The notes under the pieces are model-generated. The model was given only the letters and a program-made list of their open reading frames with translations. It did not search any database and was not told the DNA's origin. The position numbers and the translations under genes are program-made. Shown here one piece after another: positions 7,161-61,353 of a stretch of DNA of 64,000 nucleotides. The number at the start of each line of letters is the position of its first letter. Position 1 is the first letter of the stretch. Source of the DNA: a virus (taxonomy: Duplodnaviria > Caudoviricetes); the IMG/VR virus record IMGVR_UViG_3300022723_000184, positions 128,001 to 192,000 of that record, one strand, 5' to 3'.

Positions 7161-8048
7161 TTGGCCAAACGCAAGTTCACGATGCACGAGCAGATGATCT
7201 TCGACGTAATCCGCAAACAGGCGGGCACGCTGTCGAAGGCGGCGTTGGAAGGCGTGATGAACGCCGTCGACGCCAACGCCTCCGAGATCAAGATCACGCT
7301 CGACGAGGGCAGGATGACCCTGTCCGACGACGGTAAGGGGTTCCGGTCCAAGAAGGAGATCGAAGACTACTTCGAGACCTTCGGCCGACCTCACACAGAG
7401 CAAGAGCAGAAGGTCTTCGGCAAGTTCCGTATGGGTCGCGGGCAGATGTTCGCGTTCGGCAGGAACCTGTGGGAGACCGGACGATTCCGGATGGACGTCG
7501 ACGTCAAGGACAAGGGCCTGGATTACGACCTGAAGGAGCTGTCCGAGAAGGAGCGGGCGCCCGGTTGCTCGATCACGATCGAGCTGTACGACCAGTTGCT
7601 GCCGAGTGACGTCGACAAGACGGTCAGGGACCTGGAGCTGTGGTGCAAGTGGGCGCCGCTCCGTGTGGTGCTCAATGACCGGGAGATCAGTTCGGATCCC
7701 GCTGCCCAGGAGTGGCAGTACGAGACGGACGAGGCCTACGTCAGTCTGACGGGTGTCGGCGGTCTGACGATCTACAACCAGGGCGTGTTCGTCATGGACA
7801 TTCCGGCCTACCGGTACGGGACGGGCGGCGAGGTCGTGACCAAGATGGGTCAGGATCTTGACGTCAACTTCGCCCGCAACGACATCCTGGCTTCGTGCCC
7901 GATCTGGAAGAAGGTCTCGCCCTTCATCGACCAGCGGGCCACGGAGAAGAACACCAAGAAGCGGGCCCTGGACGACGGCGCCCGCCAGAGGCTGGCCCAC
8001 CAGTTGAAGGCCGGCGAAGAGATCGAGTCTCATCTTCTAAACCGATGA
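7161..8048 (+). pseudogene. GHKL (HATPase_c/MORC-like) ATPase, 3' end replaced by an inverted CRISPR repeat
   Basis: EGVMNAVDA, DDGKGF, GKFRMGRGQ boxes; terminal residues SHLLNR and the stop codon come from the repeat at 8027-8062. Confidence 0.7.
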
Positions 8049-8062
8049 GCAGGTATTAAGAT
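8027..8062 (-). CRISPR. solitary CRISPR repeat, 35/36 identical to the array consensus
   Basis: minus strand reads ATCTTAATACCTGCTCATCGGTTTAGAAGATGAGAC. Confidence 0.95.
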
Positions 8063-10243: not shown

Positions 10244-11906
10244 GGCTAAGGCACCTCGTAGTCTGAACATCCATGTTCCCTGGGCCGAGGTCGCCGAGGC
10301 TCTGGAGTTGCCCCTGAAGAGCCAGACACTCCCCGCTACGACCAGATGCCCATTGTGCGGCGGACGCCGCTTACGTATCTATCAGGATAGCACAAGCGGG
10401 GGGTCATGGCACTACTGCGGTGATTGTAAATCCCGCGGTGACATGATAACACTGGCCGGTTCCGTGTGGAAAACGGACGTCTACGAGACGCTCGACAGGC
10501 TGAGAGATGCTGGCATCGATCTGCCCGATACGCAGTTAGGGTCGCCCCAGGTCGTCAGTTACGCCGATCGACAGAAGCGACAGGCCACGATCAGCGAACT
10601 TTGGAAGCTGGCGCAGCGTCAATTGTGTGCCGGCCGGATGGGGGGAGTCGCTGACCTGCAGCGGAAGTACTATCTTCGGTTCAAAGGCGACCGTGAGCGG
10701 GTGGAGGACGGGCCGGCCAAGCTATACGGGGCCCTGACCGTCAAGCAGGCGGAGCGGGCGTTGTACAGCCCGGGGTCGTTGAACAAGTACGGGCGGACGA
10801 AGAACGCGCACCTCGCCTTCAAGGGCCGCAACTGGGGCGATGTCCTGGTCATGCCGTTCTACGACATGCCCCAGCGGATCTGTGCCCTCAGCTTTATGGG
10901 GCGCCGCGGCAATCCGAAGACCGACCAGGTGTTTTACACGACGCACACCAGCGCGATCGAGGCGGGCCTCGGCGGGCTGCCCTCGATCGAACTGGCTCAT
11001 GACCCGGACACGGTGATTGCCGTAGACGACTGGCTGTTCTACTTGCGGGCCCAGATCCGCCACTTCCGCAGCTCGTACATCCCGATGCCCATGGTCGTAT
11101 GGCGGGACGAGGGCAAGATCAGGACCCAGCGGGCGTGGAACGCGGTCAGTGACAAGAACATCGTGTTCTGGGGGTTTAACTTGGACGCCCGGATGATCCG
11201 GCACGCGATGGAGACCGACGGCATGATCTCGCTGCTCGGGCCCAAGGAGTTTGTCGACGACCAATCGGTCGGCCACTTCCTGCGGGACCACCGGGGCACC
11301 GACCTGCCCCGCGACGTCATCCGGGCCGCGAGGCCGTGGCGCAAGGCTCTGGCCCACTGGCTCTCGTGCAATAGGCCGGAGCACGGCCACAATCTGTTCA
11401 AGGCCCTCGAAGAGCTGGGCGAGGACGTCAGCCACATCCTGAACCAGATCGGCAAGGGCCCGACGACGATCGCCCGACCGGTCATGCGGAGGTCGGCCGA
11501 GGTCGGCCCCTACACGATCTCCGAGCGAGGCGGGTGCTGGTACCACGACAGGTACAGGACCCGGCCCGAGCTGATCATGGATGCGGTTCTCAGGGTGACC
11601 CATGCGATCAACGACCTGCGGTCGGGTGACCTATGGTACCGCGGGTTCATCGAGTACCGCGGGCAGCGGATCTATTTTCTGGAGCCGGCCAAGACCATGG
11701 AGGGCCGGACCCTGTTCTGGATCCGGGACAAGGTCAGCGCCGCGGGTCTCGGGCTGCTGCGGTACAGCTCGATCTGGTCACGGGGTGGGAGGCACAATCT
11801 GTACCAGGTGGCCGTGACCTTCGACGAACCGCGGTTTGTGAATGAAGACCTGGCCTTGCACGTGCAGGAGATGCGTGAAGCCGGGCACCTGATCGATCCG
11901 ATCTAG
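10242..11906 (+). CDS. protein with N-terminal primase-type zinc-binding domain
   Basis: CPLC...HYCGDCKSRGDMI motif; no clear TOPRIM motif seen. Confidence 0.55.
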   Translation: MAKAPRSLNIHVPWAEVAEALELPLKSQTLPATTRCPLCGGRRLRIYQDSTSGGSWHYCGDCKSRGDMITLAGSVWKTDVYETLDRLRDAGIDLPDTQLGSPQVVSYADRQKRQATISELWKLAQRQLCAGRMGGVADLQRKYYLRFKGDRERVEDGPAKLYGALTVKQAERALYSPGSLNKYGRTKNAHLAFKGRNWGDVLVMPFYDMPQRICALSFMGRRGNPKTDQVFYTTHTSAIEAGLGGLPSIELAHDPDTVIAVDDWLFYLRAQIRHFRSSYIPMPMVVWRDEGKIRTQRAWNAVSDKNIVFWGFNLDARMIRHAMETDGMISLLGPKEFVDDQSVGHFLRDHRGTDLPRDVIRAARPWRKALAHWLSCNRPEHGHNLFKALEELGEDVSHILNQIGKGPTTIARPVMRRSAEVGPYTISERGGCWYHDRYRTRPELIMDAVLRVTHAINDLRSGDLWYRGFIEYRGQRIYFLEPAKTMEGRTLFWIRDKVSAAGLGLLRYSSIWSRGGRHNLYQVAVTFDEPRFVNEDLALHVQEMREAGHLIDPI

Positions 11907-14860
11907 TCGAGATCCCAGTTCGGGTTCTCGGGATTCAACGCATCCATGATCGCACGGTCGATGCCGATGTTTTCGATCTCGGCAAGGTTCGGCCAGTTGC
12001 CAGTCGCCTGGTACAGTGTGATCAGGCCGAGGTTGGTGGCCTGGGCGAAGTCGTCGGACAGCGCAGGATCCCGGATGATCGTGTAGATGTCCTTACCCAG
12101 GCGGCTGTCGACCTTCTCCTCGACCAGGGCCAGGAACTCCCGGATGAGGCCGGGGTTCTCGGCGTCCTTGTAATCGTCTTGAAAGAACCGGAGCCAGCCG
12201 GTCTTGATCTGTTGGCAGGTGAGCTGCAGGGACCGGGGCTTGTCGACCAGGTAGTAGTCGCGGGGGTGGCGGTCCGTCCGGGGCTTGGGAACGATGATGC
12301 CGCCGACGGCCGCACGCTGCAGCTGGCAGGCGATGATCCGGTTGTAGGGGAAGCCGGCCTGATTGATGAACGTCTCCCGCAAGGAGCCGGCACCCGTGTA
12401 GTCGTGAGCCATCAGGTGACACTTGAACCGGGTGAGAAGGGCAATGGCCAGCCGGGCTTCCCGGGCATGGTCGTGGGGCGTCAGCGAACGCAGGGCGTAC
12501 AGGCAGTCCACCCGACCATCGGGCATCATGCCGAGGACCGAGTAGGTCGTGAAACTGATGCCCTGTTCGCCGCCGCCGCCCCAGTCCACGCCCAAACAGC
12601 GGAGGGTGTACTCGCCGATCTGTTTCTGGGCCTCTTCGACCTCGTTCTTCCACGGAAGGCACGCGGCCTTCATCAGGTCGGTGAGCGTCACGAGCTTCGA
12701 GCCGGTGTCGTAGCTCTCGCCGCAGACCTCGTTGTAGAACACATGGATCGGGGTGTTGCCCCGGCCCTCACGCTTGCCGAGAAGGACGTCCCACTTCTCG
12801 GCGTTGCCGTAGTGCATCGGCATGATGATCTGCGGCACGTGGTACCCGGCGAACGTCCAACGCTTTTCCGGGTGGGCATGAACCCAACGGCCGTGCAGCT
12901 TCGGGTGGATGGGCCTCCGGCACTTGGCGCAGATTACGGCCGGATTGTTGAAGGAGATGTCGTCACGCAACGGGCCGATCATCTTGTCGAGATCGTGGGT
13001 CATCGCCGGTACGTTATGGTAATTGCAGCGGTGACATTTGATGACCCATTCGGCCATCGAACTGTCTCGCCAAAGAGTTTCGATCGTGTTTTCGAGGGTC
13101 TTTGGAGTGCCCGCAAACGACTCGATGCCTCCGTACTTCGATCCGGACATCGTTTCCCGGATGATCGGGATGAAGTCTTTGTCGAGGTCCTGCACTTCGT
13201 CATAACAATTATGTGTCAGCACACCTTCAGCGAAGAAGCAGTGTTCTCGTTGCGTGTTGATGTCCCAAACCGGTTTGAGGTCAAGACGTTTTACGTGGAC
13301 TACGTGTACAAACGATGTCTCACTTTTCGACACTCTGGCCCGCAGACGGGATTCGATGCCGCAATCTGATGCTGCTTCGCTTCTATCGTTTTCCCGCACA
13401 TCGAACAGGCAATTTCGGGGCGAGGTTTCGCGAGCTTGTAAGACATCATCTTCGGGACGAACGCGGATACGTTTTCGGACAGTTTCCTGGAGTCCGCGGC
13501 CGGCAGGTAAACTAAGTGATAGAGCTTTCCTGTACGAGAGTTTATGGACGGGTGACGTTTGGCCGACAACAATTCTCGTCGCTGTAGGTCGGACGCGATG
13601 AGGTCCACTTCCCTTTCGGTGAACCCTTGCGTGTTGAAGTGGATAGTACTTCTTTGTCGTGCCCCGTCGTCCATGAGCTAGTAAGCGATTCCTCGCCAGT
13701 CGAGTCGTTCTAGCCAATCCTGACTGACGCGTTTCTTTCCTTCCGGACAGGTCAGCGCATACAGCGGAGCCAGCTCCACGGCGCTTACGGTGTTGAACAC
13801 GCAAGATACTTTGCCCCAGCCTTTGTTTTCTTTCACTCTTGGTGGTGTGGACACGTACTCGCCTAAGACTGCTGCCTTGTGTCGGCAGTACGCTTCTCGA
13901 GACCCGCCGTGGCGGAAGCATACCCGCGGGTTTGCTGTGTTGCTCGATTTTGACAGGCAAGCATCCCCGAGCAAACAGCCGAGTAGAAGTTGTTCTTGCT
14001 CGCAGGTCAACGGAGGCACCTTCTTCGGTTTTCTCCCCGGGCGAGAAAAGGGTCGACAAGCGGATCCATTCGCCCTCGGCGGTTTTGAACCGAGAGTCTT
14101 TTGTACACCTAAGGACCGAGCCATTGGAAAACCGGACTTCGTAGATCTGCTGGACGCCTTGGAAGATTTTTTCGGTAACGACATCGTCGACAACCTTTCC
14201 GTCGTTGTTGACGGCCGGCACGATGTCCCCAGTTCTGGCTTCGTCGATCCGGATACCGCCGCGGTTCCTGGTTTCGATTATTGTATCGCCTACGAAGCAG
14301 TTCTGGTCAGCGGAAATACCACGAGTACGTTCGGCGTCGAGGAACGCGAACGAGAAGATCATCTGGCTGTTGTTGCGGAAGGTACGTTGCAGCACAGAGC
14401 CAATCGTGTTCGTGCCGGTGAACACGTTGACCACGGGCGACTGCTCGATGAACGGTCGGATGTAGTTCTGGCTGAATCGCCGGATCATTTCAAACAAGGG
14501 CGTGACGTACAGCGTCGAGAAGTACGGCAGGCAGTTCGACTGCACGACGCCGCGACTTGCCAGGCTCGTCGACTTGGAGACTTGACGGCCTGTTTTGAGC
14601 AGCGACTTGCGGGCCATGCGAGTCCGGAAGAACGGCTCGAACGGGAAGTAGTTGTCGAGGCTGTACGGTTCGCCCTTGAGGTTGAGTAGCAGCGGGAGCA
14701 GGGGTTTCAAGGACGCCACCCTGCTTTTGCGCATGAGGTGGGCGGCCACCGTAAGTCGGCGGGTGTTGGCGTCCTCGAACCCCGATAGTTTTAGGCCGTC
14801 AAGGATCTTGGGCGAGACGTCGAGGCCCATTTCCTTGATGACGTCGGAGACAACTGACAT
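11903..14860 (-). CDS. terL: terminase large subunit with intein
   Basis: Walker A LKTGRQVSKS, Walker B split as ADQN|CYDEVQD, nuclease motif GVDWGGG, C-terminal DDFAQA. Confidence 0.88.
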   Translation of the reverse strand: MSVVSDVIKEMGLDVSPKILDGLKLSGFEDANTRRLTVAAHLMRKSRVASLKPLLPLLLNLKGEPYSLDNYFPFEPFFRTRMARKSLLKTGRQVSKSTSLASRGVVQSNCLPYFSTLYVTPLFEMIRRFSQNYIRPFIEQSPVVNVFTGTNTIGSVLQRTFRNNSQMIFSFAFLDAERTRGISADQNCFVGDTIIETRNRGGIRIDEARTGDIVPAVNNDGKVVDDVVTEKIFQGVQQIYEVRFSNGSVLRCTKDSRFKTAEGEWIRLSTLFSPGEKTEEGASVDLRARTTSTRLFARGCLPVKIEQHSKPAGMLPPRRVSRSVLPTQGSSLRRVRVHTTKSERKQRLGQSILRVQHRKRRGAGSAVCADLSGRKETRQSGLARTTRLARNRLLAHGRRGTTKKYYPLQHARVHRKGSGPHRVRPTATRIVVGQTSPVHKLSYRKALSLSLPAGRGLQETVRKRIRVRPEDDVLQARETSPRNCLFDVRENDRSEAASDCGIESRLRARVSKSETSFVHVVHVKRLDLKPVWDINTQREHCFFAEGVLTHNCYDEVQDLDKDFIPIIRETMSGSKYGGIESFAGTPKTLENTIETLWRDSSMAEWVIKCHRCNYHNVPAMTHDLDKMIGPLRDDISFNNPAVICAKCRRPIHPKLHGRWVHAHPEKRWTFAGYHVPQIIMPMHYGNAEKWDVLLGKREGRGNTPIHVFYNEVCGESYDTGSKLVTLTDLMKAACLPWKNEVEEAQKQIGEYTLRCLGVDWGGGGEQGISFTTYSVLGMMPDGRVDCLYALRSLTPHDHAREARLAIALLTRFKCHLMAHDYTGAGSLRETFINQAGFPYNRIIACQLQRAAVGGIIVPKPRTDRHPRDYYLVDKPRSLQLTCQQIKTGWLRFFQDDYKDAENPGLIREFLALVEEKVDSRLGKDIYTIIRDPALSDDFAQATNLGLITLYQATGNWPNLAEIENIGIDRAIMDALNPENPNWDLD
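13208..14299 (-). mobile_element. intein (364 aa) in terminase
   Basis: starts CFVGDT, ends VWDI...FAEGVLTHN followed by Cys+1. Confidence 0.9.
13300..14040 (-). pseudogene. LAGLIDADG homing endonuclease, out of frame with the intein and carrying a nonsense codon
   Basis: LLGCLLGDA motif, then GIAY*LMDDG (TAG at 13678-13680), then a CxxC zinc ribbon; start approximate. Confidence 0.75.
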
Positions 14861-21539: not shown

Positions 21540-21575
21540 TCGCCAACAGGCTGCTCATCGACAAGAGGATGAGAC
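21540..21575 (+). CRISPR. degenerate solitary repeat upstream of cas12m
   Basis: CTGCTCATCG-(7 nt)-GATGAGAC vs repeat CTGCTCATCG-(8 nt)-GATGAGAC; 6-bp stem intact; ends 20 nt before the ATG. Confidence 0.7.
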
Positions 21576-21595: not shown

Positions 21596-23365
21596 ATGGG
21601 ATTCAATAAGGACCCAGAGGCCCGCTGTGTGGTTTACCAGTACGGCGGCAAACATCCGACGGAAAACGAAGACGAAGCGATCAACCAGCTCGCCAAGGCG
21701 AACCGTTTTCGGAACCGGCTCGTTGAGTTGGAGCTACAACGACGTGAAGAATACCACGCTGCGTTCTCGGGTTACGGAGACCTGGCGGAGCCGTCAAATC
21801 AGCTTGAGACGCTCAACGAGCAGCTGACCGCTGCGGTGGCAGAACTTAAGGCGTGGAGACAATTGAACGGCACTCGAAGTCAACACCCGACGCTAACCCC
21901 GCAGATCGTTTCGCTACGGGCTCAGGCTCGCCAGCTACGGACACAGATCAAGTCGATCAAGGAAGCGGCCAAAGGCGATCCTACGGTGCAGGCGGCAATC
22001 GAAAAAGCAAACCAGCAGCACCGAGATCAGACCAAAGCTGCGTACGGCGCTGTAAGAGAATCGAACCCGGAGGCCGAGGACGCCAGAGACCGGCATGGGT
22101 TGTTCTGGGGAACGGCCCTCCTAGTTCAAAGGGCAGCGACACAGTTCCAGAAGGGCCCTCCCCCGAGGTACAAACGTTTCGACGGGACGGGAACTATCGG
22201 CGTGCAGCTGCAGAACGGGATGTCTGTGGAGGATCTGTTCACTCCGGGCGGCAGCGTCTGGATTGACCCCGTTCCTCCGGAGGCCTGGGACCCGCAGACG
22301 CCGAGAGGTCAAAGGCGAAAACTCGCAAGAACGATGCTACACATGCGGATCGGCGGGAAGCCGCAGGCCTGGGTGATTCTAAAGCTACCTGTCACCGTGC
22401 ACAGACCGCTGCCTGCAGGAAAACTTATCAAGTGGGTCACGGTCACTCGGCGTAAGTACGGTTCACAGGCGCGGTGGTATGTAAACGTCACGACGGATAT
22501 CAGGTCTGGTGGCACGCTTCACGATGATGTTGCGGCTGCCGGATTTGTGGGTGTCGACCTGGGTTTCAGGTTGTTCAAGCCCGCAGAAAGCAGCTCAGGC
22601 AAGCGATCGCTCCGAGTGGCTGTATGGGCCGGAGATGACGGGGAGACAGGCGAACTTCGCCTCGACGCGAGGTTTATGTCCTACATCTCAAAGGCCGACG
22701 GTTTGAGGTCGATCCGGGACAAGCGGCTTGATCAGATCAGAGCGGCGCTGCTTCCGTTGTGTGACGAGGCGGGTACGCCGGAGTGGTGGAAAGACGACAC
22801 TCAACACATGGCCAAATGGAGGTCTCCTCGAAAGCTGTATCACTTGCTCCACAAGTGGAAAGACAACAGGTGGGATGGCGACAAAACGCTGTTCGATCTG
22901 TTGGTTAAGTGGGTAGTTCAGGACCGTCACCTCCACGTGTGGGAAGCCAACAATCGCCGAAAAGTAGCGGCTCGTCGCCTGGACATGTACCGGAACCTGG
23001 CGGCCTCTTTGAGGCGCAAGTACGCGGTTATCGGGATCGAAGACATCGATTGGCGGATCTGGAGCAAGTTGGCCCTGCCCGAAGAAGAGGAGACCAAGTC
23101 AAAGAAGTTCCGTGTTCAAAAGAAACATGCGGCGGTCGGTCTGCTTGCAGAGACGCTGTCGAATTGCGGGGCACAGGTTGTACGTTTGGATCCCGCTTAC
23201 ACGACGAAGCGGTGCAACGCCTGCGGCAAGATCACCGAATTTGACGCTGACCGGCACCTGCGACATACGTGCGAACATTGCCATGCGGAGTGGGACCAAG
23301 ACTACAATGCGGCAAAGAACCTGCAAGACATGGCGAGCGGCAACGCCGTAACGCAAACCGCGTAG
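21596..23365 (+). CDS. cas12m: type V CRISPR effector, Cas12m (V-U1/V-M)-like, 589 aa
   Basis: RuvC-I GVDLG, RuvC-II IGIED, zinc finger CNAC/CEHC, RuvC-III DQDYNAA; RFDGTGTIGVQLQ and WRSPR motifs recalled from Cas12m; array 137 bp downstream. Confidence 0.85.
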   Translation: MGFNKDPEARCVVYQYGGKHPTENEDEAINQLAKANRFRNRLVELELQRREEYHAAFSGYGDLAEPSNQLETLNEQLTAAVAELKAWRQLNGTRSQHPTLTPQIVSLRAQARQLRTQIKSIKEAAKGDPTVQAAIEKANQQHRDQTKAAYGAVRESNPEAEDARDRHGLFWGTALLVQRAATQFQKGPPPRYKRFDGTGTIGVQLQNGMSVEDLFTPGGSVWIDPVPPEAWDPQTPRGQRRKLARTMLHMRIGGKPQAWVILKLPVTVHRPLPAGKLIKWVTVTRRKYGSQARWYVNVTTDIRSGGTLHDDVAAAGFVGVDLGFRLFKPAESSSGKRSLRVAVWAGDDGETGELRLDARFMSYISKADGLRSIRDKRLDQIRAALLPLCDEAGTPEWWKDDTQHMAKWRSPRKLYHLLHKWKDNRWDGDKTLFDLLVKWVVQDRHLHVWEANNRRKVAARRLDMYRNLAASLRRKYAVIGIEDIDWRIWSKLALPEEEETKSKKFRVQKKHAAVGLLAETLSNCGAQVVRLDPAYTTKRCNACGKITEFDADRHLRHTCEHCHAEWDQDYNAAKNLQDMASGNAVTQTA

Positions 23366-23489
23366 CCGATCGATCTGTAGTGTGTACAAGTAGTTGTGGC
23401 GGCTACGGAGGGCCGCTGCACTTCTGTCAAGGGTGCCGACGATCGAACCGCTCGAAAACGGCCTGATAACCATGTACGCACGTGTAGGT

Positions 23490-23495
23490 TATAAT
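23490..23495 (+). promoter_or_regulatory. -10 box of the array leader
   Basis: perfect TATAAT 7 nt before repeat 1; no consensus -35. Confidence 0.6.
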
Positions 23496-23502
23496 GCCGC
23501 GG

Positions 23503-24247
23503 ATCGTAATACCTGCTCATCGGTTTAGAAGATGAGACGCGGCATTGATTGCCTTCTTGAGTTGCTGCTCCAACATCGTAATACCTGCTCATCGGTTTAG
23601 AAGATGAGACATCGCCGCATCGCTGGAAGCGGGCGTGGCGTCGGCGGATCGTAATACCTGCTCATCGGTTTAGAAGATGAGACCTTTCTCTGTGTCCGAG
23701 ATAACGGGGTCACTAATGTCATCGTAATACCTGCTCATCGGTTTGGAAGATGAGACAAGCATCCGAGCAGCCGCTACAAGGACAAGATCGGCATCGTAAT
23801 ACCTGCTCATCGGTTTAGAAGATGAGACTAGTCGGGCAATTGCTCGAACGGCACAGAGATATCGTCATCGTAATACCTGCTCATCGGTTTAGAAGATGAG
23901 ACGCTTACCGGTGGCCGAGGCCAAGGCGCGATGGAGAACATCGTAATACCTGCTCATCGGTTTAGAAGATGAGACACGGTGGATCCGGTCGAGCGGCTGA
24001 TCCTTCACATCATCGTAATACCTGCTCATCGGTTTAGAAGATGAGACCCGGTGATCGACGCGGTCCTCGAGAACGCCGAGGACATCGTAATACCTGCTCA
24101 TCGGTTTAGAAGATGAGACAAGTGGATCAGGTTCTTCTCATCGTAATACCTGCTCATTGGTTTAGAAGATGAGACGCGGACTGCCCCGAGATGCGGCGCC
24201 GGCTGTGGGTAATCGTAATACCTGCTCATCGGTTTGGAAGATGAGAC
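23503..24247 (+). CRISPR. CRISPR array, 11 x 36-bp repeats and 10 spacers (36-38 nt, one of 20 nt)
   Basis: repeat ATCGTAATACCTGCTCATCGGTTTAGAAGATGAGAC with CTCATC/GATGAG stem; single-base variants in repeats 4, 10 and 11. Confidence 0.99.
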
Positions 24248-46581: not shown

Positions 46582-46617
46582 GTCGTAATGTCCGCTCACC
46601 GGCTTGGAAGATGAGAC
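46582..46617 (+). CRISPR. solitary degenerate CRISPR repeat upstream of the recA-like gene
   Basis: GTCGTAATGTCCGCTCACCGGCTTGGAAGATGAGAC, 30/36 to repeats 4 and 11; 11 nt before ATG 46629. Confidence 0.88.
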
Positions 46618-61113: not shown

Positions 61114-61353
61114 CGGCTCAAAACGCGTCAAAATACATGCAGGCAACTTAGCCTGCTCAATCAGGACCCCGGAAGGCTCCGTCGGGCATTTCTGCTCGGC
61201 GGGGTCTTTTTCTTTTCACATCCATGGAACAGACCCAGTACCAGATGAGCCGACCTTCGGGTCACCTGAGACGGGACCGGTCTGTTCCCTGGATCTGAAC
61301 CACGTGGCGGCCGGAGCCGCCGAAACAAGACACCTCTCAAGTAGGAGAACGTC

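Follow-up and report, generated by a model that had tools for sequence, protein, structure and literature searches.

The DNA analysed here, referred to below as the window, is a stretch of 64,000 nucleotides that corresponds to positions 128001-192000 of a 201,946-bp IMG/VR virus record (IMGVR_UViG_3300022723_000184), for which CheckV estimates a completeness of 90%. Coordinates are those of the window unless genome coordinates are indicated, and a window coordinate is the genome coordinate minus 128000. The plus strand carries a compact type V CRISPR-Cas locus that consists of a cas12m gene and a repeat array. The cas12m open reading frame (ORF; 21596..23365, +) starts with ATG and encodes 589 amino acids (aa), and exactly 137 nt (23366-23502) lie between it and the first repeat. 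The array itself (23503-24247, +) comprises 11 direct repeats of 36 nt, every one of them with GAGAC at its 3' end, and 10 spacers. An earlier note on this DNA, made from its letters without database searches, had described a 589-aa protein with RuvC and zinc-finger features and, starting 137 bp past its gene, 11 repeats, each of 36 bp and ending in AGAC; all of these figures were found to be exact on recheck. Eight of the 11 repeats are identical and repeats 4, 10, and 11 differ by one substitution each, which suggests that the leader end of the array is the one toward cas12m. The spacers are all different, and nine of them are 36-38 nt long; spacer 9 (24120-24139) has only 20 nt, which is near the guide length actually read by Cas12m, and for this reason it may still work. 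The 137-nt leader (23366..23502, +) has a stem-loop after the cas12m stop codon and a TATAAT box (23490-23495) that lies 7 nt 5' of the first repeat.

The 589-aa protein is a full-length type V-M Cas12m (formerly V-U1) of the D-E-D type, and this family assignment is firm. The PADLOC Cas12u1 profile covers residues 11-580 (E 1.8e-98), and a phmmer search against solved structures returned Cas12m 23vw (E 5.9e-67, residues 14-578), Cas12m2 8hhl (1.5e-26), and GoCas12m 8pm4 (2.5e-19), whereas the solved chains of Cas12f and TnpB align to the last ~55 residues only (~521-578 for Cas12f). Pfam recognizes only the C-terminal zinc-ribbon (TNB) domain. An AlphaFold2 model built with 16 homologues has a predicted local distance difference test (pLDDT) score of 86.6 and long helices at residues 25-154, and a Foldseek search with this model placed Cas12m2 8hhl and GoCas12m 8pm4 best, with a template modelling (TM) score of 0.65 as against 0.41 or less for Cas12f and TnpB. 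The helical REC insertion of the Cas12m fold is present in the model, while TnpB and Cas12f are without such an insertion. The earlier note had proposed a compact, Cas12m-like type V system and had named a profile search with hidden Markov models, phylogeny, and structure prediction as checks, and all three agree with the proposal. Two other families were considered and rejected. For an IS200/605 TnpB, the NCBIfam model guided_TnpB scored 50.5 bits against a cut-off of 100 and aligned over residues 452-577 only, TnpB structures reach a TM score of at most 0.35, and the locus also has a CRISPR array; neither the profile search nor the fold search thus puts the protein within the TnpB group, a placement that the note had listed as counter-evidence. 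For Cas12f (type V-F), one PADLOC model with a Cas12f label matches over the full length (E 2.4e-94), but because solved Cas12f structures match the C-terminal end alone (~521-578) and at low TM scores (0.41 or less), we read this label as an overlap in naming.

The RuvC triad of the protein is D321/E482/D569, which aligns to the H-D-D positions of Cas12m2, and its zinc ribbon is of the CCCC type (C540/C543/C559/C562). H269 and R270 are invariant in 16 relatives and align to the residues with which Cas12m2 reads its CRISPR RNA (crRNA); the Cas12m2 counterparts contact C(-1), the last base of the repeat, and a G:A pair (PMC10442227). A maximum-likelihood tree pairs the protein with a metagenomic homologue of 46% identity as its sister and places it in a clade with 100/95 support that holds all 17 viral sequences together with the D-E-D plasmid enzyme MsCas12m, with the plasmid enzymes of Mycobacterium, Pelobacter, and Methylomonas outside it. 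As the sampling was biased toward relatives of the query, we do not take this tree as a sign of viral origin.

With such a triad, the protein could be a nuclease that actively cuts DNA under RNA guidance and so eliminates rival elements, like CasPhi in other huge phages. D321, E482, and D569 are intact and invariant in the closest clade, and Omura et al. left DNA hydrolysis by D-E-D clades possible (PMC10442227), but all four D-E-D orthologues that Bigelyte et al. tested, MsCas12m included, bound DNA without cutting it (PMC11013384), and conversion of Cas12m2 from HDD to DED failed to restore cleavage (PMC10442227). We consider a nuclease role to be unlikely on this record. Characterised Cas12m enzymes with D-E-D, H-D-D, and N-D-D triads bind DNA flanked by a protospacer-adjacent motif (PAM) and leave it uncut, silence plasmids and phages through a block of transcription or replication, mature their precursor crRNA themselves, and read ~17-18 bp of the guide (PMC11013384, PMC10442227, preprint 10.64898/2026.03.26.714355). 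For MsCas12m in particular, DNA binding without cleavage and processing of precursor crRNA have been shown (PMC11013384).

The array repeat folds into a 6-bp stem that ends two bases short of the 3' end, with G...A flanks and a terminal C. For comparison we took 19 further repeats from viral contigs, each belonging to a Cas12m locus, and all 20 have a G 5' of the stem and AC (or GAC) 3' of it. Across the 20 repeats, the 5' segment past a conserved AA pairs with the first 3-5 bases of the loop. The bases involved vary from repeat to repeat (AAGA/TCTT, GCT/AGC, CCCC/GGGG, GAGT/ACTC, GGC/GCC, and others), and a pairing of at least 3 bp was found in 80% of own pairings compared with 23% of cross pairings, which is covariation. 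Judged from this pattern in the sequences, the predicted pairing is the pseudoknot handle known from Cas12m2 and GoCas12m (PMC10442227, PMC11013384). No reverse-complement copy of the repeat core, as an anti-repeat would contain, was found near the locus at up to 6 mismatches in 26 nt, with weaker ones outside this search, and a search of Rfam returned no match.

Most spacers hold an open reading frame rich in GC at third codon positions (GC3), without strand preference, and for this reason they resemble fragments of coding sequence taken from GC-rich genomes. In GenBank phages and PLSDB plasmids every match to the spacers was at chance level (E of at least 0.2); for spacers 1, 3, 4, 5, and 7, the PAM-proximal seeds of 22 nt had no match in IMG/VR, and a comparison of the spacers with 68 retrieved loci yielded nothing. 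Across all of the 202-kb record, Pfam profiles of Cas1, Cas2, and Cas4 matched nothing at E≤1, and the same search did match control genomes; the earlier note's remark that cas1, cas2, and cas4 are missing from the window therefore holds for the entire record. As the phage is without an adaptation module, its spacer set may be static or loaded in trans by machinery encoded elsewhere. The note had favoured spacer supply by Cas1-Cas2 of the host, which our searches do not support, since no array with the same repeat turned up in GTDB or JGI sets, although the host may be absent from both. The repeat-hairpin pattern had 7 single matches in 185,579 species genomes of GTDB (~17 expected by chance) and 42 single matches in JGI metagenomes, never as an array in either. 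One of the JGI matches lies on a 2.5-kb metagenome contig (L050:2270-2340), where a single unit consisting of AATGCCAG, the stem, and AC stands 33 nt 5' of an ATG with an AGGAGG site; by its sequence, this unit looks related to the solitary repeats of the phage that are described next.

Outside the array, nine solitary copies of the repeat are spread over 170 kb of the genome. Six are on the minus strand. The copy at genome 136027-136062 (window 8027-8062, -) is identical to the array repeat at 35 of 36 positions and has a TACAAT box 7 nt upstream; the stop codon of a GHKL-ATPase-like gene (7161-8048) lies inside this repeat, and the sequence 3' of the repeat is antisense to the end of that gene. 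The other five lie outside the window, one of them near-identical to the array repeat (genome 124139-124174, -) and four diverged (genome 53583-53618, 46773-46808, 7620-7655, and 5222-5257, all -). A TAYAMT box ends 5-8 nt before the repeat in the array and in all six minus-strand copies, and this box and the repeat are the only module that they have in common, as the downstream sequence is different in each. Each minus-strand copy lies at the 3' end of a plus-strand gene, and in three of these genes the stop codon is within the repeat; RNA that continues past these repeats would consequently be antisense to the gene end. The plus-strand copies each precede a start codon. One, diverged and outside the window (genome 72751-72786, +), ends 12 nt before the ATG of a 119-aa gene (genome 72799). 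Another, also diverged (genome 174582-174617, window 46582-46617, +), follows a terminator-like hairpin and ends 11 nt 5' of the ATG of a UvsX/RecA-like recombinase gene. The third, in the 5' untranslated region of cas12m (genome 149540-149575, window 21540-21575, +), is degenerate; it keeps the G, a CTCATC/GATGAG stem, and the AC tail, has a changed loop, and ends 20 nt (A10 GGAATAGCGC) 5' of the cas12m ATG. Diverged copies retain the pseudoknot by compensatory change from ACC:GGT to GCC:GGC. Based on these features, the solitary units are very probably functional RNA elements that Cas12m is predicted to bind. Such binding may mask translation, promote processing, or provide extra guides, among other possible effects.

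Three observations beside the solitary repeats deserve mention. The array leader of the closest homologue (46% identity; L003:11880-11922) has a TACAA-type box and a CCGAGG motif that abuts the first repeat, an arrangement that compares with window 23486-23502 and is also present in the solitary units of the 202-kb phage; as box and motif are shared, the junction of leader and repeat seems conserved. A 2248-aa ORF at genome 46858-53604 (+; locus L071:2858-9604), whose stop codon falls within a solitary repeat, has a Hint domain, three LAGLIDADG domains, and weak matches to helicase/primase families, which suggests several inteins. Lastly, an AT-rich, promoter-like sequence of 29 nt occurs twice (28/29 identical), at genome 124103-124138 and at window 61125-61153, each time upstream of a plus-strand gene, and one of the two copies is the "guide" of the solitary repeat at genome 124139. 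The duplicate was rejected as a self-target of the solitary-unit guide, as it has two seed mismatches.

Solitary repeats are also found in other viral genomes that encode Cas12m. We searched each whole record with the repeat-hairpin pattern of that phage's own array, and reversed-pattern controls gave zero matches. Dispersed copies number ~15 in a 176-kb IMG/VR contig (G002, behind locus L056), 10 in another IMG/VR contig (G003, behind L057), 4 in a complete genome of 103.5 kb (G004, behind L066), and 6 in a complete genome of 152.9 kb (G006, behind L067), in which some units are followed by a variant repeat and form mini-arrays, and which has no array within 4 kb of its cas12m. Virus Rctr197k has one dispersed copy (175442-175466), and a 194-kb contig with a 24-repeat array (G001) has none under the pattern used. 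Among 35 units of four genomes, either solitary or last in an array, the first start codon of a ≥60-aa ORF lies 9-22 nt 3' in 6 cases, compared with a background of 4.2% (P=0.003). A search of the literature found no description of dispersed solitary Cas12m repeats.

These copies raise the question of whether Cas12m acts mainly on the expression of the phage itself, binding the repeat fold in mRNAs and antisense RNAs to influence translation, processing, or stability, its own synthesis included, with an array that is secondary or vestigial. The nine solitary units keep the stem, the G...AC flanks, and mostly the pseudoknot, the sense copies stand 11, 12, and 20 nt before their ATGs, four further Cas12m viral contigs show the same pattern, and no external target was found for the spacers in the sets searched. 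Against this, Cas12m is known as a DNA binder and no action on mRNA has been reported; repeats that are near-identical and spacers that are all different are what a working array has; G001 shows zero dispersed copies under the pattern used despite its 24 repeats; and the start-codon enrichment is modest and depends on the criterion. We therefore regard this explanation, in which the array hardly matters, as rather doubtful.

The reading that we prefer, to which we assign a probability of about 0.6, is that the ~202-kb jumbo phage carries a genuine type V-M CRISPR-Cas12m module that combines binding-only interference with self-directed regulation by means of the solitary repeats. Binding-only interference against rivals or host genes is the most likely function of the array, because characterised Cas12m enzymes, among them MsCas12m of the same clade, bind DNA uncut. 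The array transcript would probably start from the -10-like box in the 137-nt leader, and Cas12m would then cut the precursor within the repeats, as its characterised orthologues do. By the same analogy, the crRNA that is kept would have a pseudoknot handle ending in G, stem-loop-stem, and AC, followed by ~17-20 nt of spacer, and the resulting complex would tightly bind PAM-flanked double-stranded DNA without cutting it, blocking transcription or replication of DNA that matches a spacer. The ten spacers would most likely be aimed at rival phages and plasmids or at genes of the host, which would itself be GC-rich; the earlier note had likewise proposed use against competing mobile elements or host genes, and its interpretation as a whole is partly supported. 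Going by the conserved RNA features and the positions of the units, Cas12m very probably also binds the nine solitary repeats in the phage's own transcripts, that is, the three sense copies that stand 11-20 nt 5' of a start codon (cas12m's among them) and the six antisense copies at gene 3' ends with -10 boxes like that of the leader. If so, the system would have a second role in regulation, directed at the phage itself.

Several results weigh against this combined role. The D-E-D triad described above is intact and invariant in the closest clade, so that by sequence the enzyme may yet cut DNA. No spacer has a protospacer in the sets that we searched, among them the phage's own genome, and the interference role is for this reason assumed. 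The leader has no -35 element, and a scan for sigma-70 promoters in the leader and the solitary units gave no match, with only the -10-like hexamer present. The copy in the 5' untranslated region of cas12m has no pseudoknot pairing, and a looser version of the start-codon test is not significant (P=0.15). Guides of the solitary units have no match elsewhere in the genome; the six antisense copies are without an obvious target, and the only match of their guides is the locus of origin itself, in which GAC, the end of the repeat, takes up the PAM position.

A bolder version of the regulatory idea, which we put forward tentatively as somewhat less likely than not to be correct, is that large phages have made Cas12m a regulator of their own genomes by placing its handle in the 5' leaders of selected mRNAs (cas12m's own among them), where the ribosome-binding site takes the place of a guide, and in antisense units at gene ends that have promoters of their own, with the array kept for use against rivals. 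Cas12m might then bind, trim, or mask these RNAs and in this way set the timing or level of phage expression. If this is true, Cas12m would serve as a CRISPR effector whose native function is post-transcriptional, self-directed, and conserved across unrelated phages.

The surroundings of the locus are those of a phage genome. Neighbouring genes encode primase-like proteins, a dCTP deaminase, an HD hydrolase, an SbcC-like protein, helicases, a DnaB-like helicase, a DNA polymerase, and the UvsX-like recombinase, and a large terminase subunit of 985 aa with an intein splicing domain inside it lies at 11903-14860 (-). No tRNA genes were found in the 64-kb window. The base composition of the record is even, and 189 of its 226 predicted genes are on one strand. 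The earlier note's placement of the system among phage replication and packaging genes is borne out by the terminase and replication genes nearby, and nothing in the record points to a bacterial chromosome or a chimera, which the note had named as a possible source of error.

The note had also observed that the codon usage of the gene looks less GC3-biased than that of its neighbours and had inferred horizontal acquisition. The GC3 of cas12m is indeed 0.67, the 7th lowest when the 138 predicted genes with 150 aa or more are ranked (mean 0.826, standard deviation 0.076; ~2 standard deviations under the mean), and the lowest-GC bin of the window is 22001-24000 (GC 0.561). In synteny comparisons with the loci of the two nearest homologues, only cas12m and a weak HD-domain match are held in common. 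The low GC3 and the otherwise unrelated gene neighbourhoods of the nearest homologues both fit horizontal acquisition, which is plausible on these sequence grounds, short of proof; the evidence gives no date for it. One could go further and suppose that the acquired cassette of cas12m and array no longer works and that the solitary repeats are debris of recombination. The low GC3 suggests foreign origin, neither adaptation genes nor, in the sets searched, spacer targets were found, and one spacer is shortened to 20 nt. However, the 589-aa frame is open with all family-invariant residues present, 8 of 11 repeats are identical, the solitary copies keep their structure through compensatory change and have ordered positions and conserved -10-like boxes, and the architecture is conserved across distant phages. 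We regard an inert relic as highly improbable.

As a kind, the locus itself is ordinary for large phages, and phage-borne V-U/Cas12m systems without adaptation genes are already on record. Huge phages carry type V-U variants, and nearly all phage CRISPR systems are without Cas1, Cas2, and Cas4 (Al-Shayeb et al. 2020, PMC7162821); type V-M is found in some prophages besides being enriched in plasmids (review, PMC11656645). The myxophage MV-1 has a Cas12m (MvCas12m) and an array without adaptation genes, termed the first in a phage in its description (preprint 10.64898/2026.09.14.751636, September 2026), and Virus Rctr197k (GenBank KX853510), whose record was deposited with CRISPR features, has ~21 repeats after a gene that is 33% identical. 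Rctr197k has a second annotated CRISPR beside a "transposase-like protein" (119281-121176; L002:1-900), possibly a second small RNA-guided system. Using a pattern from a 6-sequence alignment (a 16-sequence alignment was too divergent for pattern search), we found 16 IMG/VR contigs of 5-194 kb with a full-length homologue, and in at least 10 of the 16 an array lies directly downstream. Close relatives were found neither at the DNA level in GenBank phages nor by single-protein patterns in IMG/VR. The order of cas12m and then array is thus conserved in the closest homologue's locus (46% identity), in Rctr197k, and in at least 10 IMG/VR contigs, and as V-U or Cas12m systems without adaptation genes are known for phages from the preprint, KX853510, and PMC7162821, the locus is not new as a kind. 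The contigs also imply that "first in a phage", as worded in the preprint's description, understates how frequent such loci are. Taken alone, the locus is one more phage-borne type V-M system in the publicly known set.

Compared with MmCas12m2, GoCas12m, and MsCas12m (PMC10442227, PMC11013384), the phage protein is alike in its size of ~590 aa, in its sequence and fold over the full length, and in its WED-REC-RuvC-zinc ribbon order. The H269/R270 contacts and the 36-nt repeat with its stem, G:A pair, terminal C, and pseudoknot are likewise shared, as is the absence of adaptation genes; no anti-repeat of the kind found in a trans-activating crRNA was seen near the locus at up to 6 mismatches in 26 nt. 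It differs from the plasmid Cas12m enzymes in that identity is only 24-30%, the carrier is a jumbo phage instead of a plasmid, and nine solitary repeats are present besides. MV-1, which we compared by its description, and Rctr197k both have a Cas12m gene directly followed by an array, no cas1, cas2, or cas4, a D-E-D triad, and no spacer targets found. Rctr197k, at 33% identity, has no other gene of the cas12m neighbourhood in common with the 202-kb phage, and dispersed solitary repeats are absent from the preprint's description of MV-1. The CasPhi (Cas12j) systems of huge phages (PMC7162821) resemble the locus in having a large phage as carrier, a small type V effector, a short array, and no Cas1, Cas2, or Cas4, and their proposed use is also against competing phages or host genes. 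CasPhi, however, cuts DNA and processes crRNA in its RuvC site, whereas Cas12m orthologues bind DNA uncut.

Tool development may profit from this Cas12m, which is compact (589 aa), of the D-E-D type, and equipped with a defined handle. What is less ordinary about the system is that a CRISPR effector predicted to bind without cutting occurs together with lone repeats at ordered genome positions, which offers a testable case of action on a phage's own transcripts. Viral solitary repeat units can act as RNA anti-CRISPRs, and Cas12k transposons use delocalised crRNAs. An RNA anti-CRISPR was rejected as the role of the solitary units here, as the phage has the cognate cas12m of its own and the repeat hairpin was not found as an array in the 185,579 genomes or the JGI metagenomes. 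A further parallel is with repeat-like elements of the standalone type and with cr-like regulatory RNAs (Shmakov et al. 2023, 10.1101/2023.03.03.530964), in which single repeats outside an array likewise keep the fold that the effector binds, one of them just upstream of the effector gene. The described cases are either inside cas loci, where they steer the effector to cas promoters, or mimics of host repeats in elements without a cas gene. The 202-kb phage differs from both, as it has its own cognate cas gene, copies throughout its genome, and, in the sense copies, a ribosome-binding site at the position of the guide.

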